Assembly: GCF_030684315.1 (NCBI RefSeq)
Contig: NC_081391.1
Coordinates: forward strand, 20,296,629 to 20,360,628
Length of the DNA stretch: 64,000 bases
From: Stegostoma tigrinum
Lineage: Eukaryota
Reading direction: 5' to 3'
Shown: positions 3,795 to 63,610 of the stretch, piece by piece
How the letters are laid out: each line of letters begins with the position of its first letter
Numbering within the stretch: the stretch's first letter is position 1
The notes under the pieces: generated by a model
Told to the model about the DNA's origin: nothing
Database searches by the model: none
What the model saw: only the letters and a program-made list of their open reading frames with translations
Made by a program: the position numbers and the translations under genes

Positions 3795-6028
3795 TCAGCT
3801 CAGTGAGAGGCTGTCAAACAGGTACTCTCCCATGCCATTGTCAGGGTCTCCCAGTCTCTTCAGGTTGGTGATGTGATCTCCCAGCTTCTTGATCATCTTC
3901 ACTTGCTCATCCAGGTAGTGCCTCTCCAGGAAGTCACACAGCTGGAACAAGGAGCCAGAATGTAATGTTAGAGCAGACACATCAACAATCACACCATTGC
4001 GCTTTTGCAGTGATAAGTGTGAACAAGTGCTGGTATTTGAGAGCAGCTTGCTCTCCAGAAACAATGAACAGACTGGAATAGCTTTATTTGCAACTTTGCA
4101 AATGCAGAAATGGTGACAGAAACCTGAGTTTACCCACCAGGGATCAAACTGCCATTTCACAGAATTGGGTGGAAGTTCTAAACACTTACGCCTCTCACCA
4201 AGTCAGCAAAGCACATATCAGTGACTGACATCTATGTTCAGGATGGCTGCTGCTCTCAAACACTGGGACAATAGCAAGCCTATGCTTGTAGAACAGGAAT
4301 AGCAGATTCCCATGTCACCTTGAGCTCCCTCGAGACATGCATCCCATCAGGAACTCACATGAGGGTCCGTGTGGCCAGAGGCGAGTTTGTGCAGATCCAG
4401 CAGACTCTGGTTCACATCCTTCTCCATCCGCAGAGCTCTCTGCATTGCCTCCAGACCATTGCCCCACTCATCCTGCTCTGGCTTCTGGAGGGAGAAAACA
4501 CAGTCATTAATGAGGTTAGAAGGTCCAAGACTCGTACAAAGGCAAGAAAAAGACGACATATGGTAATCTGTGCCAAATCCAAACCAAGGATTAATAACAA
4601 TTCACAATTCACAGGTGGTCATGGAGACCATTATCAGACATTTGATCCATCATTAAGAACTGCTGACAGATCAGGGCTAAAGACTGAAACATTGGGATGA
4701 AGTTACCTGTATTCAGGCTAGTCTACAGTAATGTATCAGTCTAAACTGTCATTGGGGCAAGTTCAGTGCTAAAACCCTTTCATTCTGATTTGTTGATCTT
4801 TCAGAAAAGGAAAGAATTAGCAAAACCAACTCACATCAAGCAGAGACTTTCTATCAAGACACCTCACTCATCTCAACACAAGATGTACAGGGGAGTCTGG
4901 AACACCAAGGCCATTGCACAAGCAAGAAACAACAATTTGCATTTACTACAAGAGATAGACCCCAACCTTGATGTCCTGCAGGAGAACACGGCCACCACGT
5001 TTATTCTGGAATGCCATCAGTTTCTCAGCATGTTCCTGTTCCTCATGGGACTGCTCCTTGAAGAACTCTGCAAAGTGACGGAGGGCAACATCATCCCGGT
5101 CAAAGTAAGAGAACTGTAAGCAGAAGGGAACAGAAGGCAAGACTAAAATTTCATCACCAGCTAAAAGGTAAAATAGTAAGCTACTTAACAACTGACTGTA
5201 TCACAAGTCACTTAACAAATAAACAGGTGACAATTGATCACAGCATTGATGTTACACATCATCTCCAGACAAACATTCCTCTCCTCCTTCCCCCACCACC
5301 CTACTCAAGTCAGCAACACTAGCTCCTCCCCAAAAGGAACCCAATAATTAGAGACTATAATCTAATCTAATACTGTAATTGCTTCATGGAAACATCCAGT
5401 ATTAAACATGGACATGAACATGAGACTTTTCCTGACACCATACACTTCAGAACATAAAAGACAGAGGAGGATGCTAACCAATTGTGCAGTAAGGCTCAGC
5501 AGTTAGCACTACTGCCACACAGTGCCAGGGACCAGGGTCTGATTAAAACTGTGCATGTGAAGTTCACACATGCTCTCCAAAGATGTGGGTTTCCTTTCAC
5601 TGCCCATATATGGGCAGATGATGTTGACCAGCTATGCTAAATTGCCCATAGTGGCCAGGGCAGGGGGGTTAGCCATGGGAAGTGCAGGGTCACAAGGGGA
5701 CAGTAGGTGGGAGTGCTCTTGAGATGGACTCAATTGGACAAGTGACCTATATCTACATTATGCAGATGCTAATGATGATTATGATACCCAGCCAAAGAGA
5801 ACCACTCTCAGAAGGAGTAATTTAGATTTCAACACTCTGCTTATTAAAGAGGAGAACTTCTAGGTATTATCAGATTTACATTTAAATGCATTGTCTCATT
5901 TTACAATGCAGACAATCAAGCCTCACCATGGAGAGGTAAACATAAGAGGAATAGAGCTCCAGGTTGATCTGCTTGTTAACAGCATCCTCACAGTCCTTGT
6001 GATAGTTCTGACACACTTGGGAAGCCAT
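3795..6028 (-). CDS. Ferritin subunit (M/'heavy chain B'-like), copy A1, 173 aa, 4 exons
   Basis: Exons 6028-5927 ([34 protein letters not shown]), 5113-4967, 4484-4359 and 3941-3795 (TGA). All introns GT..AG and phase 0; exon sizes 102/147/126/147 match vertebrate ferritin structure. Ferroxidase residues E27, Y34, E61, E62, H65, E107 and Q141 (human H numbering) are present. Confidence 0.95.
5485..5770 (+). mobile_element. Degenerate HE1-like SINE in A1 intron 1
   Basis: ggctcagcagttagcactactgccacacagtgccagggaccagggt...atgctaaattgcccatagt. Confidence 0.65.
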
Positions 6029-6097
6029 CTTCACTACTCCTGCTCACTATCACCTCAACACCTCCAGAACTGAACTCCTTTCCTACGAACTCTTTTC

Positions 6098-6226
6098 TTT
6101 ATACTCCTGGGTCATCCTGCAATCAACCAGGGAATGACACCACCAATGATGACAGCCAATGAGGAATTGGCATGCATCCAGGCACCAATGAGGGGAATGG
6201 GGTGGAGTGAGATACTCAGAGCCAAT
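6098..6226 (-). promoter_or_regulatory. Ferritin A1 core promoter: TATA box plus four inverted CCAAT boxes
   Basis: TATAAA at 6103-6098; ccaat (plus strand) at 6143, 6156, 6185 and 6222. The block is conserved across paralogs whose flanks differ. Confidence 0.7.
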
Positions 6227-7110: not shown

Positions 7111-8772
7111 AGCCCATCCATGACACCAGGTTACACACAAATTGCCGATCGACAGTCAGATACCGACCTGTTTCGGAGAGTCCACAGTCAGTGTGTATCA
7201 GTTTGCTGTTTGGGATGATAAGTATTTTGACTAAGTAACACATGCATTTCTGCATTGACTGGAGATTAATGAAGCTTAGGGCTTGACGAGTAAAGTTGCC
7301 AGCAGCAAGGAATCAGATGTCGCCCTGGCCAAAGATGTTTCACAGTTAGTGTCTGCGAAATGATTAGAACTTTTGGCAATCCTGGTGGGTTGATGCCAAT
7401 CTTATATGTAAACACCTGACTTACACACTGTCCCCCACGCCCTTGCAGAGTGAGCCTGAAGCAGATTTGTCCCAGACCCTGAATGCGGTAACAAGGTCCT
7501 TCCTGATCTGTTACTACTTAACATTGCAGCTGACAGAGACAGATGGGGATCAAGAGCAGAGGAAACATTCAACTGTGTTCTGAAGCGTCACCGTACTTGA
7601 AATGCTTACTCGGTGTCTCTCTCTCTCTCATTGGATGCTAGCGGACTAGCTGAGTTTCTCCTATAATCTGTTTTGTCTCCAGGTTGTCAACATCCACAAA
7701 TCTTCAGTCCCACTTGCAACGCTTGGAAATGCCCGACAGATCCGAACAAAGACTGTAGTCACAAGCGAATGACATTATCATTAAATGGTGAATGCAGAAA
7801 GTCACCTATGAATTATACTGCAACTTTGCATTCATTTCAGCTACTTTGGAACTAGTCTAACGATGACCACAAAGCTGTTGTCGGAGAAAGCCCACCTTAT
7901 CGACTCATGTCCTTGACCGATAGAGTGAGGATATGGAGTTAGGCCAGTAAAAGGAAGCAGCTTGTATTCTACAAGAGAAACCCAGTACAAGAGAAACCTG
8001 GGTCCCCTCAGGCATGAATTGAGCAAAGCTCCGATTGAGATATTAAGCATTTCCCTTTGCTTTTATTACCAAAGGATCAGAGTGTGGAGGCTGATACAGC
8101 GGCAAGAGTATCGCACACTGTGCCCCTAAGAATAACGTAATCCAAACTCTCCTGAGAGTAAGCTGGAATTTTTTTAAAATGAAAAATAAAGGCACTCTTT
8201 CATCTCCCTCATTTAAACTCTTACTTGCTAAGGTTTCAGAAGGATGTGCGTAGCTCTGATTGTTGAGCAAGACATGCAAGCAGATTGTCCAGTTAGAGCC
8301 TTGTGGCTCAAGTTAAGGGATACCCTAGCCAGTTTATGGCAAAGGAGAGGTTTAACCTCCGGCACAGGTCATGCACTAGCATTCGTTAGGCTGGAATGCA
8401 GTGGCTACTGAATGAAAAGAAAGCTGAACCAATTAAAGGAAGAGACAGATGTGCAGTCAGGTTTTCAGGAGCTGAGAAAAAGGCAGATGCACTAGTGGTG
8501 TGGAAGGAAGACCTGCAGGATTGTATTAAATGGCAGACAGGAGTCAAGGAAGCTGATGGCCTACATTCAGACCCCTGCCTTGTACTTCACTGTAGCCACA
8601 TCACGGGGCGGGGGGGGGGGGGGGAAGGTAAATGTTTGATGATCAGTCTAGGAATTAGTTACACAGGAGAACGTAGTTGAGTGAATATTTTATTTCCACA
8701 TGCAGCAATAGAGAAACCGATACAAATAATTCTGCTTTCATGTACAATAGTGAAGCAATTCCAAACTGCCAC

Positions 8773-10900
<2,128 letters not shown>

Positions 10901-10967
10901 CTTCACTATTCCTGCTCACTATCACCTAGACAACTCTAGCACTAAGCCTTTGTACCACAATCTCTGG

Positions 10968-11095
10968 TATTTATACTCCTGGGACATTCTACGCTCAACG
11001 AGGGAATGACATCACCAATGATGACTGACATTCCCTGAAAGCCAATTCGGAATCTCCCATGAATTTCGCCCCGCCTCTGCCCTCCCACCAATTAG
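10968..11095 (-). promoter_or_regulatory. Ferritin B1 core promoter
   Basis: TATAAATA at 10975-10968, TGACATCA (CRE/ATF-like), three CCAAT and a GC-box-like ccccgcc. Confidence 0.65.
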
Positions 11096-12110: not shown

Positions 12111-12285
12111 TCATGTCTCCATGTTTCTTCGACCAAAATGCATTTCTTGCATTTTTTTGTGTTGAAATTATAAAGTGATTGCCAACATCAAATCTTACCC
12201 AATAAAAATCAAATGATCCTAATTCTGAAGTCTTCAACTGACCCCCCCCGCCCCCCCGCCCCGCCTGTGTTTGTGTGTCCACTAT

Positions 12286-15670: not shown

Positions 15671-16562
15671 GTCTGCAAATGTAGCTTTAATTGCACCAGC
15701 TGTCCCCAGCAGTTGATTGCTGGAGCCAGAACAGGAACTATGCCACATTTGTCCCACAAGCTACAAGGTGGGCATTGAGGATAGGAGACACTGTTACAGG
15801 AGAGAGCAGATTCCTCACTCAGTCTCCTACAGTGGAGACTTGTTAGAAAATCCAATTCCTTAGCTTGGGAAACTAGAACAGTGGTGTCTTGCTTGTTCAA
15901 AGAAGCATGCCAAAAAAATGCAATGCACGTGCCAGATGCTATTGCTGTTCCTTTTTTATTAACAAAGTATTTTTTTAATGCTTGGATTCTGCTAACCAAG
16001 TTAAATGAAGGTTACTAGCAAAACTGAGGTCTGGCAGCACCTGTGGATAGACTTCAGTTGAGGAGTCACCAGACTCAACCATTAATTGGTGTATCAACAC
16101 GTGCAGAGTGCCACCTACCCCCCTGACTCTAGCCGTTTGTATTGTGTTTGATCCCAGCTTTTAGGAAAGTTGGAGCATTGCTAGGGACAGGGCACCAGTT
16201 AAGTGGCTAACAGTTAGAATGGAGCAATTTTGGTGAAGCTATTGACTGGAGACTGCTCTTACAGAACTGTCACCGTGAGCACTGCTTAAAAGCCAAAAGC
16301 TTAACAGTTTGATTTCCACACCAATTACTCATTTAAAAAAATCTTTTGACTTTGGATTCAGAAACTGAACAAAAATTGCCAGGGCAAGCATTGATTCAAT
16401 GCAGAGAGCAAAAAGCCAAAGCGATTTAATAATCAGGTAATAAGCAGCCAAATAAGTGTAGTCAGATACATGGGCAATGTTTTCATTTTGTGCAGAGTGT
16501 GCAAAAAAAAAGTCATTCACTAGAACACCAGTGTACAACAAATGGAGTTGTTGAATCCTCAT

Positions 16563-18023
16563 TCAGCTCAGGCTGAGCCTGTCAAACAGATACTCTCCTT
16601 TGCCCTTCTGAGGGGCTCCCAGTCTCTTCAGGTTGGTGATGTTATCTCCCAGCTTCTTGATCATCTTCACTTGCTCATCCAAGTAGTGCCTCTCCAGGAA
16701 GTCACAGCTGGAAGACAAGACAAGTTAGTGGAATCCATTGAAGACATTTGGAAGTGACCCTCAATTCAGATTTAACAAATCAATACCATGTTGAGGGAGA
16801 GGGGCACTCTGGTGATGCGTTTGGACTGTTGTAGATTTAACAGTCTGCAGGAGGCAGTTATGAGACAATTGTATTCCCCCTCCCCACAAGAGTACACAAA
16901 CAGATCACTTTCAGGTTGGAAACATTCATCTTTCCTGGAATTTGATCGTCATCCTGGTAGTTTGTTGTTCGAAAGGCCATCAGCCCTACATGCTGAATTT
17001 AGCAGTGAAAGGCAAGGAAGCTTATTGGAGAGAAAGTGAGGAACTCACATGAGGGTCTGTGTGGCCAGAGGAGAGATTGTGCAGATCCAGCAAACTCTGG
17101 TTCACATCCTTCTCCTTCTGCAGAGCTCCCTGCCTTGCCTCCAGATCATTGACCATGGTCAGTCTTCTGAAGCGGCAGCGTGGGGGTGGATGGTAAGAGA
17201 CAAGACACATCACTTAAAATGCAAGAAACCAGTGAAAAAAGCAACAAGACCTCCATCTCATTAGGAGAGTGTACAACAGCTAAGAGATTATATCCAAAGC
17301 ATTAAAATGCTATAATATTCAGGGCTTAAAAAGCCTTCTTCAGGACAAAATGACATTTCATTAAACCCAATCTTGATGTCCTACAAGAGGAGCATGCACC
17401 CACATTCTGGAATGCCATCAGTTTCTCAGCTGTTCCCATTCCTTCGAGGAACAGTGCCATGAGAACTCAAAGTGACACAGGACAACATCTTCCCAGTCAA
17501 AAGTGAAAGGATTGTAAACAGGGAAACCCATTGGGGTTTGTTGTTAAAGATTCTTCTCTACTTGAAATGCTTCTTCAGTCAGGCCTGCAGGTTCTGGAAG
17601 GGAAAGCCTCCCTTGTAAATCACAACAAAAACAACACCAGAATAGATTGAGGTGTAGTTTCTTGCCTTGTGAAGCAGGAGGGAAGGGAGGGATCATCTTC
17701 CTACAAGTTGGGTCTTGAATATTTCATACTTGACACAAAATATTAAGTATTAAAATAAAACCTCAACATTCCAAAAGGCCATATGGGTAGGGAAAATGGC
17801 TCAGCTTCAGCAAGGAAACCTTCCAACACAGAACAGGATTCTCAGCTCTGGAGTGAACTAGCAAAGTTGATTAGTGAAGTATTGACAGCAAATAGAACTC
17901 AGGATTGTGATAGTGTTCCTCCCTCTGGGATGGAGGTCCAGGGTCGCATACGCTCTAGAGGTCAGACATATTATCTCTCAACAGATTAACACTATTCAAT
18001 AGAATAAGTCCAATTACATTGTA

Positions 18024-18063
<40 letters not shown>

Positions 18064-18347
18064 ACAGACATCCCAGGTCATACATCAGGATCAAACCATT
18101 AAAAGATTATTCACTTCTCAAGGTCAGGGAAAGGCCACAGAAGATTCTAAAATATGAATTGAATGATGCAGAGAGACCCTACACCCACAATACATTGAGG
18201 CCACAGCTTGAAATCTGAAATAAATCCAGAGAACACCACTGTCACCATGGAGAGGTAAACATGGGGGAAAGAAAGCACCAGGGTGATCTGCTTGTTAACA
18301 ACATCCTCACAGGCCTTGTGATGGTTCTGCCACACTTGGGACGGCAT
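16563..18347 (-). pseudogene. Ferritin pseudogene, copy C1
   Basis: Exon 1 at 18347-18246 is diverged (ITLVLSFPHVYLSM, E27 lost). Exon 2 (~17511-17372) has indels and its donor GT is mutated to AT. Exon 3 at 17166-17049 is 118 nt (frameshift). Exon 4 at 16707-16563 is 145 nt (2-nt deletion right after the acceptor). Confidence 0.9.
18030..18060 (+). repeat. (CA)n microsatellite
   Basis: About 15 CA units; absent at the paralogous site (~61825). Confidence 0.9.
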
Positions 18348-19139
18348 CTTCACTATTGCTGCTCACAATCACTTGGACAACTCTAGAACTGAGTCTCCCT
18401 CCCACAAGCTCTTGTATTTATACTCCAGAGACCATCCTGCACCAACCAGGGAATGACATCACTAACAATGATTGACAATCTCTGACAGCCAATCAGGAAT
18501 CTGCAAGAACCCAGTCACCAATGAACAGAGGAGGAGGAGAGTGGGGCAATGTGCTGAGACCCAGAGTCAATCAGAGATTTGGGTAACAGTCAGGTTGAGA
18601 TTATTATTCTGTGATAACGAGAGCACTTAGCCTCTCAAACCTGTCCCCTAATTCAACTGGATCGGTGCGAGTCTGAGTCTTCATTTAATACCTTTGCCTG
18701 GGTTCTGCATCGCATCATATTGCGAACTAGCACAGCTCAACAAATCAGTTTCGAAATGTCCAAGGGGCTTGCAGAATTTTGGGAGTGATACTGTAATGTT
18801 TGAGATTAAGCATCATCACTGATTACCATAGCTTTGATCTGAAGATTATTCCCCCTTTTCCAGGATTACTTCGCCACAGGAAACAGTACATTGTCTAACG
18901 GCACGATTAGATCCATTAATAATCCAAAGTACCTGGATAATATTCATTCTCGAGTCTTCCACACTCTTGCAAGGACAAGGCTAGTTGATGTAAACTGTAT
19001 TCATAACGTAACCAGCTTGGGGCTGAGAAAATGCTGGTGAATCTGTGCTAAGGTCCCTCAAATAACCCTGTCAGAGCTCAGCACAGCGCTCCAAATGTGC
19101 TCTGATGCCACTTCTATGCTGTTGTATTACAACCCATGC

Positions 19140-26042
<6,903 letters not shown>

Positions 26043-26109
26043 CTTCACTATTCCTGCTCACTTTCACCAGGGCAACTCCAGAACTCAGCCTCTCAGCCAC
26101 AAGCTCTTG

Positions 26110-26256
26110 TATTTAACCTCCTGGAACATCCTGCACTCAACCAGGGAATGACATCACCAATGATGATTGACAATCCCTGATAGCCAATCAGGCATCTCCA
26201 TGAATGCAGGAGCCAATGAAGGGCATGGGGTGGAATGAGATCCCCAGAGCCAATCA
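26110..26256 (-). promoter_or_regulatory. Ferritin D core promoter
   Basis: TTAAATA variant at the TATA position, TGACATCA, and four CCAAT at ~26157, 26184, 26213 and 26250. Confidence 0.6.
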
Positions 26257-29375: not shown

Positions 29376-30081
29376 AACATCTATCCCACGAGCTCCAGAT
29401 TTAACCAGGAGCTGGAAAAAAAAAACCAAACCCCATTCTCTTCAAGTCTGCTATTAGAAGGTCAGAGTAGAAGCTGATATCTTTTTATATCAGCTCACTA
29501 AAGCCTTAATTTAGGGAGGGTGGGGGTCTTAGCCTTTCTAAAAGAGAAATGACTTGCTGCCTGCCAGATGTAGTGTAAGGGAAGTCAGGTGCTGAGCAAA
29601 AAAAACCCTAAATAGATGCTTCAAATGTGGGAAGCCTCTGAACATCTGAGGGATGAGTCAAGCTTTCCTCAAAAAGTAAATAGACACCACAAGAGTGCTA
29701 ATGACCTCTGGCTTTGAGAGATGATTTCAATATTTTATCAGTACTGCTGCAACATTTTGCTGAAGATAAACTTGGTTGCTCGTACTGCTGCAAACAAGGG
29801 GCAATTGCCCCATATATAGCCAAATGCTTGTCCACTCACTGACTCCAAGTATCTTTGGACAGTCATCCCTGTTGACATTATCCAGCTGGTCCAAGGAGTT
29901 GGACCAAAGTCAGCAAACCATATCCATGTTGTTGGGAATGGACAAAATCCTTGGAAGATATTGGATAGGCTTTGGGCTGCAGAATTACAGAAAGCTAGAC
30001 AGCTTTGGTTCAATGATTTTTATTTCATATTCCAGTACAAGCAAAAGAGAATGCAAGGACCAAGTGATTGTAAAATCCCAT

Positions 30082-32235
30082 TCAGCTGAGTGTGAGCCTG
30101 TCAAACAGGTACTCTCCCATGCCATTGTCAGGGGCTCCCAGTCTCTTCAGGTTGGTGATGTGATCTCCCAGCTTCTTGATCATCTTCACTTGCTCATCCA
30201 AGTAGTGCCTCTTCAGGAAGTCACACAGCTGGAGAAAGAAAAGAAATGTGTAGCTCACTGAGCAGAAAGCATCTTTGTACTTCAAATGCTCAGTGCTATG
30301 TGAATAGGTACATTTAACCTAAAGGACCAATGCCTTATCACCTTTAGACCAAAAAAGTGAAGTGCTCACATGAGGGTCCATGTGGCCAGAGGCGGGTTTG
30401 TGCAGATCCAGCAGACTCTGGTTCACATCCTTCTCCATCTGCAGAGCTCTCTGCATTGCCTCCAGACCATTGCCCCACTCATCTTGCTCTGGCTTCTGGA
30501 AGAAGGGTTTTGTTAGTCAGAAGCTGCTGATGGGAGTTTGTACTAGAACTGAAGGCTGTGCCTTTTATGGCTAAAAACACTTGTTCGGGTTCTCGTAGAG
30601 ATTGTTCTATTCAAAAGTTGATGGTGGCAGAGAGGGGGATAACCTGCCACATTCAGAATCAAAGCACACAAGGCACATGTGATGTTAGTGCTGGGAGCTT
30701 AAGAGGCTGATGTGGCGTTTGAAGTCAGTCACTCCCCCATCCAGATGGGAATTGCTGGTGTCAGTGTGTGAATTACTAGACTATTGTACTTCCTAGTCAG
30801 TCCCAGCTGCAAATAAGGGAATGCCACACAACATGTTGCATTCCCCTAAGTGACTCCAGCCCGGATGTTTCCAATGGTCAATCGTTTAAGACCACCAGGA
30901 TGACAGTGAAAAATCACTCGTCACTACAGCCCAATGAAGGGTCAAATTCCTTTGCTATTTGAGCATTTTAGAATTCAATTAAATTCTTAAACACCACCCT
31001 AACCATGTGGATGGAAACCTTGGTTAAAAACCCAGCAGGGGTCCTAAAACCATGAATTCAAGTCAAGTACATGTCATACAGAGGAGTGCTCATCTCAATC
31101 AATTGTTTCTGATCACTCCACAAGCTCCATTGGATGAAAAATCTATCAAAAACATTTCAGCCCATGCACTTGAATAAGTGCAGAATCAAAGATGCAGGAT
31201 ATCTAAAACACAGGCTTCTGTCAAAGTAAACCCTCAAGCTTTCCCCTTTTAAGTTAAAAGGGGGTTAAAAGTCCAACCTTGATGTCCTGCAGGAGGACTT
31301 GGCCTCCACGTTTATTCTGGAATGCAATCAGTCTCGCAGCATGTTCCCGTTCCTCATGGGACTGCTCCTTGAAGAACTGAGCAAAGTGATGCAGGGCAAC
31401 ATCATCCCGGTCAAAGAGAGAGAACTGTGGGGGGAAGGATTGGACAGAATTCAATTAAAGCAGACCCAGACATTCTAAGAGCCAAGGGCTTGGTTACTCA
31501 TTCTCTACCTGGCTTCAAGTTAGAGACTTGGAATTCTAGTCAAATATATTGGCCTCAGCTAGTTTGAAATCTAGTCACATCTGACCACATGCAAACCCCA
31601 TCCTTGTTTGGGGGATCATGTTAAGAAACAGTAGATGTTAACAGTCCAGAGACAGCAGTAATTTTTTGCTTAGCATTCCACTGACTCTACTTAATGCCAC
31701 AAAGACTTGCTTCCCTCACTAGTCAGGGAGGGGGTGCAGAAGAACCATCTGAACAGCCTAACATTACTAATCCACATGAAGAGTCAATGTCAGTTCAGGT
31801 AAGGAAGATCTAGTCAGTTTTGGGGGCAGTGAAAACAAGATTGATCAGCTAGTTTCTCACCTCAACATTCAGTTTTACCATTAAAGTAAGGAATTAGATT
31901 GCCTCTATGTAGAGAAAAATTCTTGTTGTCCAACCCACAGATTTGGCCATTTTAAAGAACATGACAGTCACAAATGAGACAACACAGACTTGTATCTCAA
32001 AATTTAATTGGCAGGGGAGGCAAAGGTTAGAATTAAATCTTAACTGACTGGTCACTAACACCAGAACTATTTGCACAGCATACAGTGAATTAGTAATAAC
32101 TTGGAAAAAGTACCCAAAAGATACAGCACTCACCATGGAGAGGTAAACATAGGAGGAATAGAGCTCCAGGTTGATCTGCTTGTTGACAGCATCCTCACAG
32201 TCCTTGTGGTAGTTCTGAGACACCTGGGAAACCAT
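30082..32235 (-). CDS. Ferritin subunit, divergent copy E, 173 aa (E134K, L120P)
   Basis: Exons 32235-32134 (MVSQVSQNY...), 31424-31278, 30495-30370 and 30228-30082. Open frame, canonical splice sites, AATAAA at 30024-30019. Confidence 0.9.
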
Positions 32236-32300
32236 CTTCACACCTACTTACAAAAAGCAAACTCAAACAACAGCCTAACCACACCTCCCACCATCTCTAG

Positions 32301-32450
32301 TATTTATGTAAATTGAAATCTGCATTCCAACAGGAAGTTATCACCAATAGTGCTTGGCTATTAGGGATTTCCAATCAGCAGGCTCCCATGAATACAGGCA
32401 TTAATTAGGGAGAGGTGCTGGGGGGAGCTATGTACAAAGCAGAGCCAATC
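32301..32450 (-). promoter_or_regulatory. Ferritin E core promoter (diverged)
   Basis: CATAAATA at 32308-32301, with CCAAT boxes retained at homologous spacing. Confidence 0.55.
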
Positions 32451-34926: not shown

Positions 34927-36255
34927 CACTGGGGGAAACAGACAGGATGCCTCTATCGGAATCCTATCACTCCCATTGCTGTTAAGTTTCATGTAGAGCT
35001 TTATCCGATCAAGCTCAGGAGCTCTATCATCCATTCCTTCTTCTGTAAGGAAGTTGTCTGTTGGATTTCTCTTAGATTTTAGAAAAAAAATATGAAAAGC
35101 AGTATCATCTCAGGATGAGAATCAATTCTTTTGGTATTTCCTGACACCAGCAAAATATAGTCCTTTCAATTTAGAGTGCAGGAAATTGTTGAAAAAATTG
35201 CAGCACGAGAATCTATGTCCAGTACCAGATTTAAGTCCTGCTTGATAATGTCTCACTTCTGCACCCCTGCCCTCCTCAGGACTGACTCTGAGCACTGCAG
35301 TATATGGAAAATGACTATTCAGTTAGTTTGCGACATCCAGGGTAAGCACCAGGATTCCTTACTCATTTAATTGCATGCTTGTGACAAAAAAAATGGGAGC
35401 CAGCGTTCACGTGGCGGACTCCCAGTGCAATGGCCACCTACCTCTGTACAACAGAGACTCTATCACTGGTGTGTCTCGCAAGCCCGCCGGCAAGCAGGCT
35501 GTTGTTTGGATAATGAGTGCTTTCCTGAAGTTTGGCAGTGGGCACAGTTGTTTGTCATAAACTCAGCTGTGTTAGCTGTTAATTGCCAGTGCCGAGGGCA
35601 GAAAGTAAAAGGAAGCATCAGCCCACCCACTATTAAACTTGGGGAAAAAAAAAGAGTTTTCTAACCACGTGCCAGCTGAAGCTATTTCACATGTGCACCA
35701 ACTACATTGCTGAGATGCTCGCTCGAGTCACATGTAGGCCAGATCAGGTAATGGTAGCAGATTTCACTCCTCAAGAAAGATTAGTCAAACAGAAGAATGG
35801 TAGATATGCAAAACTGTCAGATAGTAAACTGCCCTGATACACCGGCTGCCTCTTTAGGTCTTTTAGGATTCTGCAAACTCTCAGCTCACATTTGGAAGAA
35901 AGTTGAGCACTGGCTGCCAAACTTCAGTAAAGTAAGGAACTGCAAAAGCATGTTTAAGAGAAGTGTGGTGTAGTGACAGCATCCCTAGACCAGGGTGGTC
36001 AGATTTGAGCCCCACCTGAGAGGTGAATAACATCCAAAAATGAATTGATTAGCAGAGGGTTCAACTGTGTCAAAAGGTGACAGAAGCACCTGCCATACAA
36101 CCTAGATATGATGGATCTGAACAAAAATCAGTTGTTCAATTTCACTAAAAGTGTTTCTTCATTATGGAGATTTTATTTTCCAATTCAACAAGGGTAGATA
36201 AAGTTTCTAAAAGACTAAATCCATTTACAGCACTGATGGGATTCTAAAATCGCAC

Positions 36256-38453
<2,198 letters not shown>

Positions 38454-39735
38454 CACCTGGGACATCCTATGTTCAACGAGGGAATGACATCACCAATGAT
38501 GACTGACATTCCCTGAAAGCCAATTAGGAATCTCCCATGAATTTAGCCCCGCCTCTGCCCTCCCACCAATTAGAGAGAGGGTGTGGGTGGATTAGGCAGA
38601 GCTGATCAGAGGTGCAGATTGTTGTCATGTGGATGGTTATTCTGTGATTGGATCAGCAGTTGGTCATTTAGAATCTCAAATCTGCCGGAACTCTCTGTCG
38701 GGTCATGGTTAGTTTGAAAAAAAAAACTAGATTTGGATTTGGAAAGCTTTTCTTTTTAAACTGAGCTTGTTGTGACCAACTGCGAGAGGTGCTCAATGAA
38801 GGAGAATCAGTGTCTGAGCATGTTCTGCTGGGATATTGGAGAGAAAGGTAGGAGATTGATGGTATTTCCTAGAAATTTGTAACAGAAACAAACAGGACAA
38901 AGACAGGAAGGATGTTTCTGTTGACCAATGCGCCCAGAACCAAGGGTCACTGTCTAAGGATATAGAGTAGACTGTTTGGGATTGAGATGAGGAGAAATGT
39001 CTTCAGTCAGACCTTGGGGAGTCTGTTGTATTCTCTGGGACAAAAAACAGTTGAGGCTAACATACTGAAGGTTTTGAAGAGTTAGATGTAGCTGATAGGG
39101 CTATGGGGATCAAAGGGTATGGAGAGAGAGTGTGAAGATGGTACGGAGCTAAGGGATTACCCATCATCATATGGAATGTCAGAGCAGGCTGGAAGGGCTG
39201 TATCAAAATGGTTCATAATTTTGAACATTTCAATCAGGTCATCTTTTAATCGTCTCTGCTCCAAGGAGATAAGGCCAATTTTTAAAATCTTTCCTGGTAT
39301 CATTCCAGCAAATCTCCTTTGCACCGTGGCCAGGGCTTTAATGCCCTCCCTTAGAAACAGTGCCCAGAATTGAACACAATACTCTAATGTGGTCTGACCA
39401 ATGGTGTGCAGTGGTGTAGCATTACTTCTTTGCTTTTATACTCTCGGGCTCTCCTTAAAAACACAAGATTCCTATAAGCCTTCTTCATGACTGTTTCATC
39501 TTGCCTGGCCACCTTCAGGGAATTGTAGTTTTAAATCCTGAGGGCTCCCTGCTCCTGTACTCACCTTGACGTTGTTCCATTGAACCTGTATTATCTCTTC
39601 ATGTCTCCATGTTTCTTCGACCAAAATGCATTTCTTGCATTTTTTTGTGTTGAAATTAAAAAGTGATTGCCAACATCAAATCTTACCCAATAAAAATCAA
39701 GAGATGCTAATTTTGAAGTCTTCAACTGACACCGG

Positions 39736-45894: not shown

Positions 45895-47583
45895 TCCACC
45901 TTCAATGATGTAATGCAAATACACCATACAGTTCACTCACTCCTGCACCCTCTTTAGAAATGCACCTTTTATTTTGTATTGTCTCTACATGCTTTTCCCA
46001 CTTTGAACTTCATCTGCCACTCGCTTGCCGATTCCACCAATATGTCTGTGCCCTTTTGAGGTTCGACACCATGGTCCTCACTAAGTTTCTTATCATGTAC
46101 AAACTCTGAAATTGCATCCTTTATACCAGGATATAAGTCATTACTTGACTTTTGTAAAGCCTGGCTCCTCCCCCTAACCCGTGGAACTCCACTACAAACC
46201 ACCCCCTTGTCCAAAGAGCATCCATTAGCATCACTTATGTTTCCAGTAATGCAGCCAACTCCATATCCCTGTCACTGCGCTGCCGTTCATTACAGGGGCT
46301 TGAACATTGTGTGGCACTGTATTATATGTCTTTAGGAAGCCCACGTAGACCACACGAACAACAGCCCTCTCGCCTATCTCCTCAAAATTCTTGTGCTAGA
46401 TAGTTGAAAGTGATTTTCCTTTTGAGGAGATCTGGCATGGATCTCAAAAAAGATTCATATTCATCCATGTATCTATTACGCAATTTTCAACTCATCTCCA
46501 TTACTTCCTATCTTCCACTCCCCAGCGTCACTCATGGAAATGCCAGGCGTCTACTCCATCACTTATCCCATTTGGAAACTGAACGAAAAGCTGATGCAAA
46601 AGGACAATGCATCTAGAAGTTGTTGCCTCTTCTCAGTGTTCATAATTTATTGCAGCTACTAATTTCCAATTTCAAAACAATTTCTCACACAGATTTAAAA
46701 GATCCACTCCCCACCCAAGTCCCCTAACCTGCCATTTCCACATACATGCTGTATATGTTGCTTGCCTTCTATTGAAGGAGAGCTTAATGTTGGAGCTGAA
46801 AGAGTTTGCAAATAAGACCTCTCCTCCTCAGCAATTTCTGTACCCTATTCCCCTGCTGAGAGCTTCACTTCAGACAAACAAGAGGAAAAGAAGTGACCCA
46901 GCCAATGATTGGCTGCTGCATACATGAAGCTATTGGGAGGTATGGAAGGGTAGGAGGAAATAAGAAGTAATGAGAAATCAGGGGGAAAGAGGGGGGTGGT
47001 GTTGAAGAAGAAAGAAGGAAGACAAAAAAATGCTTTGAATCCAACTCTGCTTCCTTTAAATCATTCATCTGCTAACCCTCAGTCCCCAAAAGAAACAAAT
47101 CAAGTCCACAAGCTGCAGATGGGAGCAGCCTTTGCAGTCGGCAAACTTCGAAAGAGTTCACTTGACCCTTGCTGCTGTTGGAAGAAGGGCAGAGGAGGAC
47201 AGGGGAAGCACCTAGTGTCTAATGTCGTCCGGAGAATAAAGTCATGTCACTCAGTGGTACACACCTGGAAGGCTAATGTAACACTAAAAGGAAAGGGGAA
47301 ACGCCTCATTTACAAATTTGCCATGAATAAAATGTACGTTCCATATGTGCATGAAATTTATGCTACCTTTAGAGGAAGATATAGAAGTGTGTGAAATTTC
47401 TATTGTGGATTTTTTCAGTCAAGTTACCTGGTTAGCTGTTGGTAATTTAGGTCGTTTAAAACACAAAGATCCAAAATCCAGTTCCACAAAGACTTGTATT
47501 TCCATTTGGAATGGCAGACAGAAAAAGGTAAAGTGGGCATCAGAATTAAGTCACAAATGGACCAATTTCTTCTATAACTCCAC

Positions 47584-49827
47584 TCAGCTCAGTGAGAGCC
47601 TGTCAAACAGGTACTCTCCCATGCCATTGTCAGGGGCTCCCAGTCTCTTCAGGTTGGTGATGTGATCTCCCAGCTTCTTGATCATCTTCACTTGCTCATC
47701 CAAGTAGTGCCTCTCCAGGAAGTCACACAGCTGGAACAAGGAGCCAGAATGTAATGTTAGAGCAGACACATCAACAATCACACCATTGCGCTTTTGCAGT
47801 GATATAAGTGTGAACAAGTGCTGGTATTTGAGCACAGCTTGCTCTCCAGAAACAATGAACAGACTGGAATAGCTTTATTTGCAACTTTGCAAATGCAGAA
47901 ATGGTGACAGAAACCTGAGTTTACCCACCAGGGATCAAACTGCCATTTCACAGAATTGGGTGGAAGTTCTAAACACTTACGCCTCTCACCAAGTCAGCAA
48001 AGCACATATCAGTGACTGACATCTATGGTCAGGATGGCTGCTGCTCTCAAACACTGGGACAATAGCAAGCCTATGCTTGTAGAACAGGAATAGCAGATTC
48101 CCATGTCACCTTGAGCTCCCTCGAGACATTCATCCCATCAGGAACTCACATGAGGGTCCGTGTGGCCAGAGGCTAGTTTGTGCAGATCCAGCAGACTCTG
48201 GTTCACATCCTTCTCCATCCGCAGAGCTCTCTGCATTGCCTCCAGACCATTGCCCCACTCATCCTGCTCTGGCTTCTGGAGGGAGAAGACAGTCATTAGT
48301 GAGGTTAGAAGGTCCAAGATTCGTACAAAGGCAAGAAAATGAAGACATGTGGTAATCTGTGCCAAATCCAAACCAAGGATTAAAAATAATTCACAATTCA
48401 CAGAAGATCATGGAGACCATGATCAGACATTTGATCCATCATTAAGAACTGCTGACCGATCAGGGCTAAAGACTGAAACATTGGGATGAAGTTACCTGTA
48501 TTCAGGCTAGTCTACAGTAATGTATCAGTCTAAACTGTCATTGGGGCACGTTCAGTGCTGAAACCCTTTCATTCTGAGCATTCTGATTTGTTGATCTTTC
48601 AGAAAAGGAAAGAATTAGCAAAACCAACTCATATCAAGCAGAGACTTTCTATCAAGACACCTCACTCATCTCAACACAAGATGTACAGGGGAGTCTAGAA
48701 CAGCAAGGCCATTGCACAAGCAAGAAACAACACAATTTGCATTTACTACAAGAGATAGACCCCAACCTTGATGTCCTGCAGGAGAACACAGCCACCACGT
48801 TTATTCTGGAATGCCATCAGTTTCTCAGCATGTTCCTGTTCCTCATGGGACTGCTCCTTGAAAAACTCTGCAAAGTGACAGAGGGCAACATCATCCCGGT
48901 CAAAGTAAGAGAACTGTAAAGCAGAAGGGAACAGAAGGCAAGACTAAAATTTCATCACCAGCTAAAAGAGTAAAATAGTAAGCTATTTAACAACTGACTG
49001 TATCACAAGTCACTTAAAAAATAAACAGGTGACAATTGATCACAGCATTGATGTTACACATCATCTCCAGACAAACATTCCTCTCCTCCTTCCCCCACCA
49101 CCCTACTCAAGTCAGCAACACTAGCTCCTCCCCAAAAGGAACCCAATAATTAGAGACTATAATCTAATCTAATACTGTAATTGCTTCATGGAAACATCCA
49201 GTATTAAACATGGACATGAACATGAGACTTTTCCTGACACCATACACTTCAGAACATAAAAGACAGAGGAGGATGCTAACCAATTGTGCAGTAAGGCTCA
49301 GCAGTTAGCACTACTGCCACACAGTGCCAGGGACCAGGGTTTGATTAAAACTGTGCATGTGAAGTTCACACATTCTCTCCAAAGATGTGGGTTTCCTTTC
49401 ACTGCCCATATATGGGCAGATGATGTTGACCAGCTATGCTAAATTGCCCATAGTGGCCAGGGCAGGTGGGTTAGCCATGGGAAGTGCAGGGTCACAAGGG
49501 GACAGTAGGTGGGAGTGCTCTTGAGATGGACTCAATTGGACAAGTGACCTATATCTACATTATGCAGATGCTAATGATTATGATACCCAGCCAAATAGAA
49601 CCACTCTCAGAAGGAGTAATTTAGATTTCAACACTCTGCTTATTAAAGAGGAGAACTTCTAGGTATTATCAGAATTACATTTAAATGCATTGTCTAATTT
49701 TACAATGCAGACAATCAAGCCTCACCATGGAGAGGTAAACATAAGAGGAATAGAGCTCCAGGTTGATCTGCTTGTTAACAGCATCCTCACAGTCCTTGTG
49801 ATAGTTCTGACACACTTGGGAAGCCAT
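47584..49827 (-). CDS. Ferritin subunit, copy A2, 173 aa, 4 exons
   Basis: Exons 49827-49726, 48913-48767, 48275-48150 and 47730-47584. Duplicate of A1 with an open frame; two Arg>Cys changes in exon 2. Confidence 0.95.
49285..49570 (+). mobile_element. Degenerate HE1-like SINE in A2 intron 1
   Basis: Duplicate of 5485-5770. Confidence 0.65.
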
Positions 49828-49896
49828 CTTCACTACTCCTGCTCACTATCACCTCAACACCTCCAGAACTGAACTCCTTTCCTACGAACTCTTTTC

Positions 49897-50026
49897 TTTA
49901 TACTCCTGGGTCATCCTGCAATCAACCAGGGAATGACACCACCAATGATGACAGCCAATGAGGAATTGGCATGCATCCAGGCACCAATGAGGGGAATGGG
50001 GTGGAGTGAGATACTCAGAGCCAATC
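49897..50026 (-). promoter_or_regulatory. Ferritin A2 core promoter
   Basis: TATAAA at 49902-49897 plus CCAAT boxes; duplicate of the A1 promoter. Confidence 0.65.
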
Positions 50027-52557
50027 ACAGTTTTGAAATGGCAGCAAATCTGTGATTGCTCCCAGGAGCTGAAGGAAGCCTGAAGGTGACTGGGGGCCAA
50101 AAGCAATGTGTTGACTTTTATCTTGCTTCTGGAATGGGGTCAGGCCACTCGGCCTAACAGCAATTATGAATGGATATCAGTGGTTGGCATCATTAGCAAC
50201 AGCCATATTCTGTGAAATGACTGAAACAAAACTCACTCCAGGGCCAAAATCAGAGTAATATACTCCACATATAGTGTATTCTGTACTGTGTACAATATTG
50301 ACATAGCCTGTACATTCTAGTCCTCTCCCTCCATCGAGATGATGACTAAACTGCTGTGAGCCTTTTCAGTTCAATTTTGCTGCAGACTGTGAGTTTTTAA
50401 GTCATTTCTACACATGGTTTCCTAACTCTGTGCTTTTCTTCAGTTCCTAGCTCTGTTGCTTTGAAAAAACTCTCATTTATCTTGGTGCAAGTTTGCTTTT
50501 CCTCACATGTTATTGATGTTGTTGATAATATTCTGCCTGTTTATGGTACTATCGTGCCAACTAATAGAATGCCATCAGGAAGCGTGAGAGAGATCTCTAT
50601 TCTTTTGTCAATGTCACATGGAAATATATGGACGTCAGAGGACCCTGTGGGGAAGAGACAGAAACATCGAAACCTAGAACACAAGGCAGGCGGAGGCCAT
50701 TCAGCCGTTTGAGCCTGCTCCACCATTCTATATGATCATGGCTGATCCCAGTGTTCCTGCTTTCCCTCCATATCGTTCGATCCCTTTAGCCCGAAGCCCT
50801 AGATCCAACAATTTGAAATCAATGCTTTGGTCTCAACTGTGTTCTGTGGTTGCAGATTCCAGAGGCTCTCCCACTGTCTTGGTGAAGAAATGTAATAGCC
50901 CATCCATGACACCAGGTTACACACAAATTGCCGATCGACAGTCAGATACCGACCTGTTTTGGAGAGTCCACAGTCAGTGTGTATCAGTTTGCTGTTTGGG
51001 ATGATAAGTATTTTGACTAAGTAACACATGCATTTCTGCATTGACTGGAGATTAATGAAGCTTAGGGCTTGACGAGTAAAGTTGCCAGCAGCAAGGAATC
51101 AGATGTCGCCCTGGTCAAAGATGTTTCACAGTTAGTGTCTGCGAAATGATTAGAACTTTTGGCAATCCTGGTGGGTTGATGCCAATCTTATATGTAAACA
51201 CCTGACTTACACACTGTCCCCCACGCCCTTGCAGAGTGAGCCTGAAGCAGATTTGTCCCAGACCCTGAATGCGGTAACAAGGTCCTTCCTGATCTGTTAC
51301 TACTTAACATTGCAGCTGACAGAGACAGATGGGGATCAAGAGCAGAGGAAACATTCAACTGTGTTCTGAAGCGTCACCGTACTTGAAATGCTTACTCGGT
51401 GTCTCTCTCTCTCTCTCTATGGATGCTAGCGGACTAGCTGAGTTTCTCCTATAATCTGTTTTGTCTCCAGGTTGTCAACATCCACAAATCTTCAGTCCCA
51501 CTTGCAACGCTTGGAAATGCCCGACAGATCCGAACAAAGACTGTAGTCACAAGCTAATGACATTATCATTAAATGGTGAATGCAGAAAGTCACCTATGAA
51601 TTATACTGCAACTTTGCATTCATTTCAGCTACTTTGGAACTAGTTTAACGATGACCACAAAGCTGTTGTTGGAGAAAGCCCACCTTATCGACTCATGTCC
51701 TTGACCGATAGAGTGAGGATATGGAGTTAGGCCAGTAAAAGGAAGCAGCTTGTATTCTACAAGAGAAACCCAGTACAAGAGAAACCTGGGTCCCCTCAGG
51801 CATGAATTGAGCAAAGCTCCGATTGAGATATTAAGCATTTCCCTTTGCTTTTATGACCAAAGGATCAGAGTGTGGAGGCTGATACAGCGGCAAGAGTATC
51901 GCACACTGTGCCCCTAAGAATAACGTAATCCAAACTCTCCTGAGAGTAAGCTGGAATTTTTTAAAATGAAAAAAAGGCACTCTTTCATCTCCCTCATTTA
52001 AACTCTTACTTGCTAAGGTTTCAGAAGGATGCGCGCAGCTCTGATTGTGGACAAGACATGCAAGCAGATTGTCCAGTTAGAGCCTTGTGGCTCAAGTTAA
52101 GGGAGACACTAGCCAGTTTATGGCAAAGGAGAGGTTTAACCTCCGGCACAGGTCATGCACTAGCATTCGTTAGACTGGAATGCAGTGGCTACTGAATGAA
52201 AAGAAAGCTGAACCAATTAAAGGAAGAGACAGATGTGCAGTCAGGTTTTCAGGAGCTGAGAAAAAGGCAGATGCACTAGTGGTGTGGAAGGAAAACCTGC
52301 AGGATTGTATTAAATGGCAGACAGGAGTCAAGGAAGCTGATGGCCTACATTCAGACCCCTGCCTTGTTCTTCACTGTAGCCACATCACAGGGGAGGAGGG
52401 GGGGGGAAAAAGGTAAATGTTTGATGATCAGTCTAGGAATTAGTTGCACAGGAGAACGTAGTTGAGTGAATATTTTATTTCCACATGCAGCAATAGAGAA
52501 ACCGATACAAATAATTCTGCTTTCATGTACAATAGTGAAGCAATTCCAAACTGCCAC

Positions 52558-54691
<2,134 letters not shown>

Positions 54692-54758
54692 CTTCACTAT
54701 TCCTGCTCACTATCACCAAGAAAACTCTAGCACTAAGCCTTTGTACCACAATCTCTGG

Positions 54759-54885
54759 TATTTATACTCCTGGGACATTCTACGCTCAACGAGGGAATGA
54801 CATCACCAATGATGACTGACATTCCCTGAAAGCCAATTAGGAATCTCCCATGAATTTCGTCCCCCTCTGCCCTCCCACCAATTAG
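54759..54885 (-). promoter_or_regulatory. Ferritin B2 core promoter
   Basis: TATAAATA at 54766-54759, TGACATCA and CCAAT boxes. Confidence 0.65.
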
Positions 54886-59465: not shown

Positions 59466-60356
59466 GTCTGCAAATGTAGCTTTAATTGCACCTGCTGTCC
59501 TCAGCAGTTGATTGCTGGAGCAAGAACAGGAACTATGCCACATTTGTCCCACAAGCTACAAGGTGGGCATTGAGGATAGGAGACACTGTTACAGGAGAGA
59601 GCAGATTCCTCACTCAGTCTCCTACAGTGGAGACTTGTTAGAAAATCCAATTCCTTAGCTTGGGAAACTAGAACAGTGGTGTATTGCTTGTTCAAAGAAG
59701 CATGGAAAAACATGTAATGCACATGCCAGATGCTATTGCTGTTCCTTTTTTATTAAAAAAGTATTTTTTTAATGCTTGGATTCTGCTAACCAAGTTAAGT
59801 GAAGGTTACTAGCAAAACTGAGGTCCGGCAGCACCTGTGGGTAGACTTCAGTTGAGGAGTCATCAGACTCAAACATTAACCGGTGGATGAACAAATGCAG
59901 AGTTGCACCTGCCCCACTGACTCTAGCAGTTTGTATTGTGTTTGATCCCAGCTTTTAGGAAAGTTGGAGCATTGCTAGGGACAGGGCACCAGTTAAGTGA
60001 CTAACAGTTAGAATGGAGCAATTTTGGCGAAGCTATTGACTGGAGCCTGCTCTAACAGAACTATCACCGTGAGCACTGCTTAAAAGCCAAAAGCTTAACA
60101 GTTTGATTTCCACAACAATTACTCATTTAAAAAATTCTGATGACTCAGGACTCAGAAACTGAACAAAAATTGCCAGAGCAAGCATTGATTCAACGCAGAG
60201 AGCAAAAAGCCAAAGCGATTTAATAATCAGGTAAAAAGCAGCCAAATAAGTGTAGTCAGATACATGGGCAATGTTTTCATTTTGTGCAGAGTGTGCAAAA
60301 AAAAAGTCATGCACTCGAACACCAGTGTACAACAAATGGAGTTGTTGAATCCCCAT

Positions 60357-62114
60357 TCAGCTCAGGGTGAGCCTGTCAAACAGATACTCTCCTTTGCCCT
60401 TCTGAGGGGCTCCCAGTCTCTTCAGGTTGGTGATGTGATCTCCCAGCTTCTTGATCATCTTCACTTGCTCATCCAAGTAGTGCCTCTCCAGGAAGTCATA
60501 GCTGGAAGAACAGACAAGTTAGTTGAGTCCATTGAAGACATTTGGAAGTGACCCTCAATTCAGATTTAACAAATCACCGCCATGTTGAGGGAGAGAGGCA
60601 CTCTGGTGATGTGTTTGGACTGTTGTAGATTTGACAGTCTGCAGGAGGCAGTTATGAGACATTTGTATTCCCCCTCCCCCCAGGAGTAGACAAACAGATC
60701 ACTTTCAGGTTGGAAACATTCATCTTTCCTGTAATTTGAAAATCATCCTGGTAGTTTGTTGCTCTAAAGGCCATCAGCCCTACATGCTGAATTTAGCAGT
60801 GAAAGGCCAGGAAGCTTCTTGGAGAGAAAGTGAGGAACTCACATGAGGGTCTGTGTGGCCAGAGGAGAGATTGTGCAGATCCAGCAGACTCTGGTTCACA
60901 TCCTTCTCCTTCTGCAGATCTCCCTGCATTGCCTCCAGGCCATTGCCATGGTCAGTCTTCTGAGGCGGCAGCGTGGGGGTGGATAGTAACAGACGAGACA
61001 CATCACTTAAAATGCAAGAAACCAGTGAAAAAAGCAACAAGACCTCCATCTCATTAGGAGAGTGTACAACAGCTAAGAGATTATATCCAAAGCATTAAAA
61101 TGCTATAATATTCAGAGCTTAAAACAGCCTTCTTCAGGACAAAATGACATTTCATTAAACCCAATCTTCATGTCCTACAAGAGGAGCATGCACCCACATT
61201 CTGGAATGGCATCAGTTTCTCAGCTGTTCCCATTCCTTCAAGGAACAGTGCCATGAGAACTCAAAGTGACACAGGACAACATCTTCCCAGTCAAAAGTGA
61301 AAGGATTGTAAACAGGGAAACCCATTGGGGTTTGTTGTTAAAGATCCTTCTCTACTTGAAATGCTTCTTCAGTCAGGCCTGCAGGTTCTGGAAGGGAAAG
61401 CCTCCCTTGTAAATCACAACAAAAACAACACCATAATAGATTGAGGTGTAGTTTCTTGCCTTGTGAAGCAGGAGGGAAGGGAGGGATCATCTTCCTACAA
61501 GTTGGGTCTTGAATATTTCATACTTGACACCAAATATTAAGCATTAAAATGAAGCCTCATCATTCCAAAAGGCCATATGGGTAGGGAAAATGGCTCAGCT
61601 TCAGCAAGGAAACCTTCCAACACAGAACAGGATTCTCAGCTCTGGAGTGAACTCGCAGAGTTTATTAGTAAAGTATTGACAGCAGATAGAACTCAGGATT
61701 GTGATAGTGTTCGTCCCTCTGGGATGGAGGTCCAGGGTCGCATACGCTCTAGAGGTCAGACATATTATCTCCAGACTGATTAACACTATTCAATAGAATA
61801 ATTCCAATTACATTGTACAGAAAAACACCCACAGACTTCCAAGGTCATTCATCAAGATCAAACCATTAAAAGATTATTCACTTCTCAAGGTCAGGGATAG
61901 GCCACAGAAGATTCTAAAATATGAATTGAATGATGCAGAGAGATCCTACACCCACAATACATTGAGGCCACAGCTTTAAATCTGAAATAAATCCAGAGAA
62001 CACCATTATCACCATGGAGAGATAAACATAGGAAAAAGAAAGCACCAGGTTGATCTGCTTGTTAACAACACCCACACAGGCCTTGTGTTGGATCTGCCAC
62101 ACTTGGGAGGGCAT
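60357..62114 (-). pseudogene. Ferritin pseudogene, copy C2
   Basis: Exon 1 at 62114-62013, degenerate exon 2 (~61305-61166) with AT donor, exon 3 at 60959-60843 (117 nt) and exon 4 at 60501-60357 (145 nt, frameshift). Confidence 0.9.
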
Positions 62115-63610
62115 CTTCACTATTGCTGCTCACAATCACTTGAACAACTCTAGAACTAAGTCTCCCTACCACAAGCTCTTGTATTTATACTCCTGGAAAA
62201 CATCCTTCACCCAACCAGGAAATGTCATCACTAACAATGATTGGTTGTCAGAGATTGTCAATCAGGAATCTGCAAGAACCCAGGCACCAATGAACAAGGA
62301 GAGGGGGTGTGGGGCAATGTGCTGAGACCCAGAGTCAACCAGAGATTTGGGCAACAGTCAGGTTGAGATTATTATTCTGTGATAATGAGAGCACTTAGCC
62401 TCTCAAGCCTGTTCCCCCATTCAACTGGATCAGTGCGAGTCTGTCTTTTCTTTGAATATCTTTGCCTGGGTTCTGCATCGCGTCATATTCTGAACTAACA
62501 TAGCTCACCAAATCAGTTTTGAAATGTCCAAGGGGCTTGCAGAATGTTGGGAGTGATAATGTTATGTTTGAGATTAAGCATCATCACTGCTTACCATAGC
62601 TTTGATCTGAAGATTATTCCCCCTTTTCCAGGATTATTTCGCCACAGGAAACAGTACATTGTCTAACGGCATGATTAGATCCATTAGGAATCCAAAGTAC
62701 CTGGATAATGTTCGTTCTTGAGTCTTCCACAATCTTTCAAGGACAAGGCTAGTTGATGTAAACTGTATTCATAATGTAACCAGCTTGGGGCTGAGAAAAT
62801 GCTGGTGAATCTGTGCTAAGGTTCCTCAAATAACCCTGTCAGAGCTCAGCACAGCGCTCCAAATGTGCTCTGATGCCACTTCTATGCTGTTGTATTACAA
62901 CACATGCTGTTTTGTTGTCCAGCCGGCTTGGGGGAAAGTGAGCACGTTCTGGCCTTTTTAATTCGGCTTTCATATCTGCCCACTGCCACACGGTTATTAC
63001 GGTGCTGATGGCGACCATTCAGCCCATCGTATCCACCACCAACTCGCTGAGCGTTTCACCTCTTGCCATTCTCCTGCACTGTCCCTGTAATCTCCATGTT
63101 ATTCCCTTCCAGATATCAGTCCTATTCCCTTTTGAATGCGTGAATTGAACCTGCCTCCAACACACTCTCGGACTATACATTTCACACCCTATCCACTCGC
63201 TGTGTTGGAAGGTTTTTATTTTTGCAGATCACTTCAGCTTCTTTTGCCAATTTTAAACCTGTGCCTTCTTGCTCCTGACCCTTTCACAAATGGGAACATC
63301 ATGCCACTGTTTGTTCTTTCTGGATCCGTATTTGCGCCGTTTGCTTTCCAGAGAGACAAGTCCCAGCCTATCCAATATATCCTCACACCTGAAATTCCTC
63401 ATTCCTGGAGCCATTCCAGGAAGCCTCCTCTGCACTCTCTCCAGTACGTCCACTCTTTCCTTCAGTGTGATGTGCAGAACGAGACACAGTATTCCTGTTG
63501 GAGTCAAACTTAAGCAGGTTCAGCATAATCACCTTGCTCTTGTACACTTGCCCCTACTAATAAAGCTCAGGGCACTGCGAGCTTTGTAAACGATTCTCTT
63601 AAACAGACCT

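Follow-up and report, generated by a model that had tools for sequence, protein, structure and literature searches.

A tandem array of some 200 ferritin genes without a 5' iron-responsive element in the shark Stegostoma tigrinum

The window analysed here is a stretch of 64,000 nucleotides of Stegostoma tigrinum contig NC_081391.1 (C50:20296629-20360628; assembly of 3.2 Gb). Eight ferritin copies with an exon 1 (six intact, two pseudogenes) and one copy that has lost it lie within the window, all on the minus strand. In the copy termed A1, exon 1 (102 nt, 5927..6028, ATG at 6028) is followed by exon 2 (147 nt, 4967..5113), exon 3 (126 nt, 4359..4484) and exon 4 through the stop codon (147 nt, 3795..3941); exon 2 matches the Pfam ferritin entry PF00210 with 40 bits, above the cut-off (C50:20301592-20301735). 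The other intact copies occupy 8768..10975 (ATG 10900, TATA 10975), 22925..26116 (ATG 26042, TATA variant 26116), 30077..32308 (ATG 32235, TATA variant 32308), 47580..49902 (ATG 49827; nearly identical to A1) and 52554..54766 (ATG 54691). The pseudogenes are found at 16556..18422 (ATG 18347), with a promoter of the same type as A1, and at 60352..62189 (ATG 62114), while the broken copy at 36253..38503 retains a TATA promoter and exons 2 to 4. All eight copies possessing an exon 1 are devoid of a 5' iron-responsive element (IRE). Positions 1-20233 and 43794-64000 form a 20-kb duplication of 96% identity, a higher-order repeat whose period is about 43.8 kb. Between the ferritin copies lie reverse-transcriptase-like ORFs (12673-13200, 28595-29477 and 56464-57063), which we take to be LINE fragments.

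The window sits inside a 1.57-Mb tandem array of four-exon ferritin genes at 19.99-21.56 Mb of C50. A survey of C50:19.98-21.63 Mb, in which an exon-1 match was counted if it covered at least 60% of the length, returned 202 matches: 199 in the array and three belonging to divergent genes past it. Four-exon chains were assembled from 194 exon-1 matches. Four exons and three introns with GT-AG ends are present in six of the eight window copies, and 100 of the 199 array copies are intact. The figure of 199 excludes copies without a recognisable exon 1 (exon-4 matches number 241), and an extra intact copy of array type lies outside it at 19.95 Mb. The strand switches within the array, for instance near C50:20.41 Mb. 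An unplaced contig of 267 kb (C216) is filled with copies of the same type with identical leaders; it may be an unplaced piece of the array or a second haplotype, and would shift the copy counts.

The array protein comprises 173 residues, is collinear with FTH1 from the first methionine and possesses neither a signal peptide nor a 42-aa insertion. Glutamate occupies position 59 in all 100 intact copies, which have introns and no N-terminal extension, and all seven ferroxidase residues (E24, Y31, E58, E59, H62, E104 and Q138) are kept in 99 of the 100. Six of these are the residues given for salmon (PMC4117605); Y31 is a further ligand. A second array at C50:13.38-14.07 Mb was IRE-less in the five stretches sampled, and its three modelled copies all carry Lys at 59 (position 62 in human) along with Glu at 138 (equivalent to Gln141Glu).

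A TATA-like hexamer begins at -73 to -75 relative to the ATG in all eight window copies with an exon 1, in keeping with the initial annotation, which had placed a TATA box close above the ATG of every copy and deduced from it a leader of about 45 nt. In A1 the TATAAA box (6098..6103) has its first base, 6103, at -75. An initiator-like TTCAGTT (6068..6074) follows, with the predicted start A at 6071 (-43), 32 nt below the start of the TATA box, which defines a predicted 43-nt leader (6029..6071), IRE-less by scanning and folding. The proximal promoter (6143..6226) contains four inverted CCAAT boxes (ATTGG at -119, -132, -161 and -198). Across the array, a TATA-like hexamer was called in 160 of 199 copies and starts at -73 to -77 in 138. 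Of these 160 copies, 116 have a loose initiator-like motif 30-34 nt below the hexamer, and 73 have the strict form. Each of the 100 intact promoters has at least one inverted CCAAT; the density is 3.46 per 200 nt, compared with 0.39 in the DNA beyond. E-box motifs were not enriched in the array promoter, which lends no support to a FIGLA-type site. The upstream conservation profile rises modestly toward the ATG, a weak indication given that the pairs were picked for unlike distal DNA. An upstream ATG at -40 occurs in 12 of the 100 intact copies (for example, the C50:20010260 type), a few bases below the predicted start, and opens frames of 4 or 26 codons; two further intact copies have an in-frame ATG at -3.

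Intronless copies elsewhere in the genome bear on the position of the transcription start. A junction-pattern search returned 63 matches, against 23 for the control, and of 16 loci tested five proved to be intronless ferritins, the other 11 not being ferritin. These processed pseudogenes (array-1 type in four cases, array-2 type in one) lie at C11:45821465-45821998, C43:36442535-36443073, C5:51546226-51546674, C2:16740144-16740652 and C2:140654454-140654683. The C43 copy begins at -43, exactly at the initiator A, and the C11 copy at -46/-48; both are collinear with the genomic DNA up to the initiator, beyond which their flanking DNA is unrelated and has no TATA. The C11 copy has a polyadenylation signal followed by a run of A. 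No convincing target-site duplication was found at either of these two long copies. The three shorter ones begin at -6, at -5 and internally, and none of the five reaches the TATA box. The retrocopies are the best independent evidence for a short leader, with the caveat that 5' truncation is frequent (three of five here). Their inheritance implies that such transcripts are present in germ cells or the early embryo. Contigs from four runs of other organisms, guessed to derive from RNA, cover the exons and bridge the exon junctions of the gene, leave 6096-6700 uncovered and cannot show the start site; they carry no weight here. Array leaders carry AG directly before the ATG. The pyrimidine tracts at leader AG sites are poor, with a median of 0.61 compared with 0.83 for 540 real acceptors, which speaks against an upstream exon; they reach the 5th percentile of real acceptors in 35 of 100 intact leaders, so that a splice acceptor here is a weak candidate with marginal tracts. 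From the TATA and initiator spacing and the ends of the two long retrocopies, we strongly infer that array mRNAs start some 43-48 nt above the ATG at a CCAAT/TATA/initiator promoter, close to the leader length first proposed.

The absence of an IRE was assessed by several scans. No CAGTG occurs within 320 nt upstream of the ATG in any of the eight window copies, and the Rfam IRE model gave no match in the window at its gathering score and none at E<=10 over positions 3500-13000. In a descriptor scan that detected both control IREs, a canonical IRE-like stem was found in none of the 199 array copies within 300 nt of the ATG. The lack of a 5' IRE that the initial annotation had reported for all window copies is upheld by descriptor, Rfam and covariance scans and extends to the array as a whole. 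Over the leaders and the 2 kb above them, the range that it had proposed to scan, the descriptor gave no leader IRE and a canonical stem in a single copy of 199 within 2 kb. Relaxed, SELEX-type loop variants occur in one of 199 copies within 150 nt, above the TATA box, and in 70 of 199 within 2 kb, mostly at about -1050 to -1100. The accompanying claim that the leaders contain no CAGUGN is true of the window but not of the whole array: within 75 nt of the ATG the motif occurs in nine of 199 copies (one of the 100 intact), and the CAGUG(A/C/U) form in six (none intact). None of the occurrences in these nine copies forms an IRE stem with a C bulge and CAGUGH loop.

A strict scan of 1.65 Mb on both strands returned five matches, four of them antisense with a mismatch and one perfect and in sense, which lies on the M/L-type gene at C50:21609327. 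A covariance model trained on the two IREs of this genome (FTH1 and the M/L gene) was run over 954, 890 and 109 kb (about 1.95 Mb); scores above 20 bits were confined to the two IREs used for training, the next best match reaching 19.6 bits (E 0.45). With filters off, the best score in the window was 13.2 bits, against 46 bits for the training IREs. The leaders had also been described as free of an evident hairpin. This agrees with the four of eight window leaders that were folded, none of which beat its shuffles (z -1.39 to +1.12), but folding alone is a weak test because the FTH1 IRE itself reaches only z -1.39, the M/L-gene IRE reaching -4.6. A cap-proximal IRE with a C bulge, a 5-bp stem and a CAGUGH loop is absent near every array ATG. 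The lack of a rare motif is by itself not beyond chance; the telling contrast is with two IRE-bearing paralogs in the same genome.

These paralogs have near-identical perfect IREs. One, on C20, is taken to be the FTH1 gene, and the other, a single gene on C50 about 55 kb past the end of the array, is read as M/L-type. The C20 gene adjoins a bestrophin gene, as FTH1 does in human. Of the 1.5 million candidates in an Rfam IRE search across the genome only 82 were scored, hence the genome holds at least two IREs. Three aconitase-family loci were found, two of which share an exon layout and are read by us as IRP1 and IRP2. Since two IRE-bearing ferritins and IRP1/IRP2-like loci are present, the IRE/IRP circuit appears intact in this animal.

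Three single-copy divergent ferritins near the array are likewise IRE-less, and IRE loss may be a common fate of ferritin duplicates. A single L-like ferritin with a TATA box (C50:21570741-21580354, minus strand; Lys at 58, Gln at 62) lies between the array and the IRE-bearing gene. A four-exon gene with a GC-rich promoter follows (C50:21591488-21601910, plus strand; exon 1 at L018:1488-1757). It possesses an N-terminal extension of about 56 aa that abounds in Arg, Leu and Gly, lacks acidic residues and is conserved in proteins of whale shark and bamboo shark. The first exon of a neighbouring gene is 80% identical to a whale shark protein and 69% to one of bamboo shark. The gene with the extension is possibly a mitochondrial ferritin of independent origin that contains introns. 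The third, from C50:21659128 onward on the plus strand, is about 50% identical to A1, has no IRE match and, over the exons covered (1 to 3), has apparently altered ferroxidase residues.

Both arrays have a common module of CCAAT, TGATGTCATT and TATA, whereas FTH1 and the M/L gene are without it. In a midpoint-rooted tree of 27 rows, confined to this genome and including 19 of the 100 intact copies, arrays 1 and 2 form a clade (support 99/94) whose sister is the IRE-bearing M/L gene (95/83). As to an FTL-type neighbourhood, C50 has a TIP49 gene at a distance of 1.4 Mb from the array and a Bcl-2-family gene at 4.8 Mb; glycogen synthase was not found on this contig in a strict first-pass search. 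Because FTH1 and the M/L gene both have the IRE, the simplest history is a single loss in the ancestor of the arrays, and it is likely, judging from tree and promoter, that this loss accompanied the new promoter and preceded amplification. The leader might conceivably be an eroded parental IRE, an idea given no weight here: the parental IRE region aligns to array leaders slightly better than shuffles (11/500; 9/400) and random genomic 80-mers (56/1478) do, with p of about 0.02-0.04, but other upstream windows score higher. A leader HMM gave no match to the parental IRE, and an empirical null for this comparison was contaminated by real promoters and discarded.

We consider it probable that the array represents some 200 IRE-less genes that keep their ferroxidase residues, derive from one duplicate of the adjoining IRE-bearing M/L-type gene and serve as a bulk iron store of the ovary or oocyte, their translation predicted to be free of IRP1/2. 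When iron is low, IRPs keep ferritin mRNAs that carry an IRE from being translated (PMC11719527). On this established biology, low iron could hardly block translation of array mRNAs. Because these mRNAs would be translated at any iron level, output would very likely follow promoter activity and copy number, as the initial annotation had proposed. Expression is probably ovarian, as suggested by the retrocopies and by a Greenland shark cluster if orthology is assumed. Cytosolic cages without a signal peptide, laid down before iron arrives, could then take up the metal and render it harmless in provisioning a large, yolk-rich egg.

An alternative is that the IRE vanished as a by-product when one duplicate came under a tissue-restricted promoter with a short leader, and that the array has since expanded and contracted through unequal crossing-over, selection on dosage or on IRP escape being slight. 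The pseudogenes that make up about half of the array, the 20-kb duplication in the window and the IRE-less single-copy neighbours are all consistent with it. Over 500 non-independent pairs from 87 distinct sequences dN/dS is 0.35; it is about 1 among the 31 youngest pairs (dS <0.03), which together with the broken copies fits drift, but 0.23 in older pairs (dS 0.1-0.2). The latter value, the near invariance of the ferroxidase residues and the existence of large clusters in Greenland and white shark (bioRxiv 10.1101/2024.09.09.611499) speak against such passive loss, which we consider unlikely. Less probable still is an IRE-free array inducibly transcribed for somatic stress or immune defence against ROS and ferroptosis, in the manner of hadal snailfish fthl27, whose 14 mostly tandem copies are broadly expressed and lower ROS (PMC10746142). 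A CRE-like TGA(T/C)GTCA in 26 of the 100 intact promoters would accord with inducible transcription, but the sole shark expression statement found is of ovary specificity (the same preprint) and the retrocopies indicate germline transcripts; ferroptosis is only alluded to in PMC13701976. That IRPs still control these genes, whether from a distal transcription start, from a non-coding exon further upstream or at a non-canonical leader site, a reading for which one might cite the AG with its marginal tracts, the relaxed motifs clustered at one distal site and the weak likeness of the leader to the parental IRE region (p ~0.02-0.04), is very improbable, as no IRE-grade match is available for splicing anywhere in the array, no C-bulge/CAGUGH stem was found and the retrocopies run collinear with the genome up to the initiator.

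The reading as an IRP-independent ovarian store can be set beside known ferritins. The Greenland shark has 155 FTL and 179 FTH1 copies, with clusters also in white shark, the largest cluster being ovary-specific (bioRxiv 10.1101/2024.09.09.611499). Like the present array, these are hundreds of shark copies in few clusters, many of them full length, although over 85% of Greenland shark copies are full length compared with about 50% intact here, orthology being assumed. In the main text of that preprint, the word 'iron' does not occur and the IRE is unmentioned. All five salmon isoforms (H1, H2 and M1-M3) have a 5' IRE (PMC4117605); they share with the array four exons and three introns, Glu24, Glu58, Glu59, His62, Glu104, Gln138 and Glu at 54 and 61, but the array is IRE-less and numbers about 200 copies. 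Snail yolk ferritin of Lymnaea and Biomphalaria has no 5' IRE, exists beside separate soma ferritins and supplies iron to the egg, the role suggested for the array; it is, however, a single gene whose secreted product has a signal peptide and an insertion of 42 aa, both lacking in the 173-aa array proteins (PMC10799875). Schistosome ferritins are IRE-less according to a cited title. FTMT is also without an IRE but is an intronless mitochondrial retrogene, and FTHL17 is expressed in germ cells, numbers six copies in mouse and bears Glu62Lys, as in the second array; FTHL17 is ferroxidase-dead, whereas the main array has kept its ferroxidase residues and introns (PMC13010531, PMC7760355). Hadal snailfish fthl27 resembles the array as a tandem amplification of an intact fish ferritin, but has 14 copies expressed in most tissues, and 'IRE' does not occur in the text of that paper (PMC10746142).

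The initial annotation had presented the amplified family as an undescribed system. This may hold for IRE loss in a shark array but not for shark ferritin expansion, ovary expression or IRE-less ferritins such as FTMT and yolk ferritin, which are known already. Neither IRE loss in shark ferritin arrays nor their common promoter was found in print, most subscription papers lying beyond the search. A second Greenland shark genome report is said to describe a ferritin expansion, and oocyte ferritin isoforms have reportedly been found in Xenopus. We raise only tentatively the broader proposal that sharks might possess a second complete ferritin system outside IRE/IRP control: a ferroxidase-active array of more than 200 genes would share one germline CCAAT/TATA promoter with a ferroxidase-dead array (Glu62Lys), and their H-like and L-like products would co-assemble and pre-load the giant egg with iron. 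It would be a dosage-driven, intracellular vertebrate counterpart of invertebrate yolk ferritin.

In vertebrates a 5' IRE is regarded as a hallmark of the cytosolic ferritin genes (PMC4117605), and the great majority of ferritin genes in this vertebrate genome are without one. The shark ferritin expansion has so far been discussed in longevity genomics; an IRE-less and likely ovarian array suggests egg provisioning instead. The locus is a natural example of a gene family that exits a post-transcriptional circuit and then amplifies, with the regulated parent gene still adjoining.
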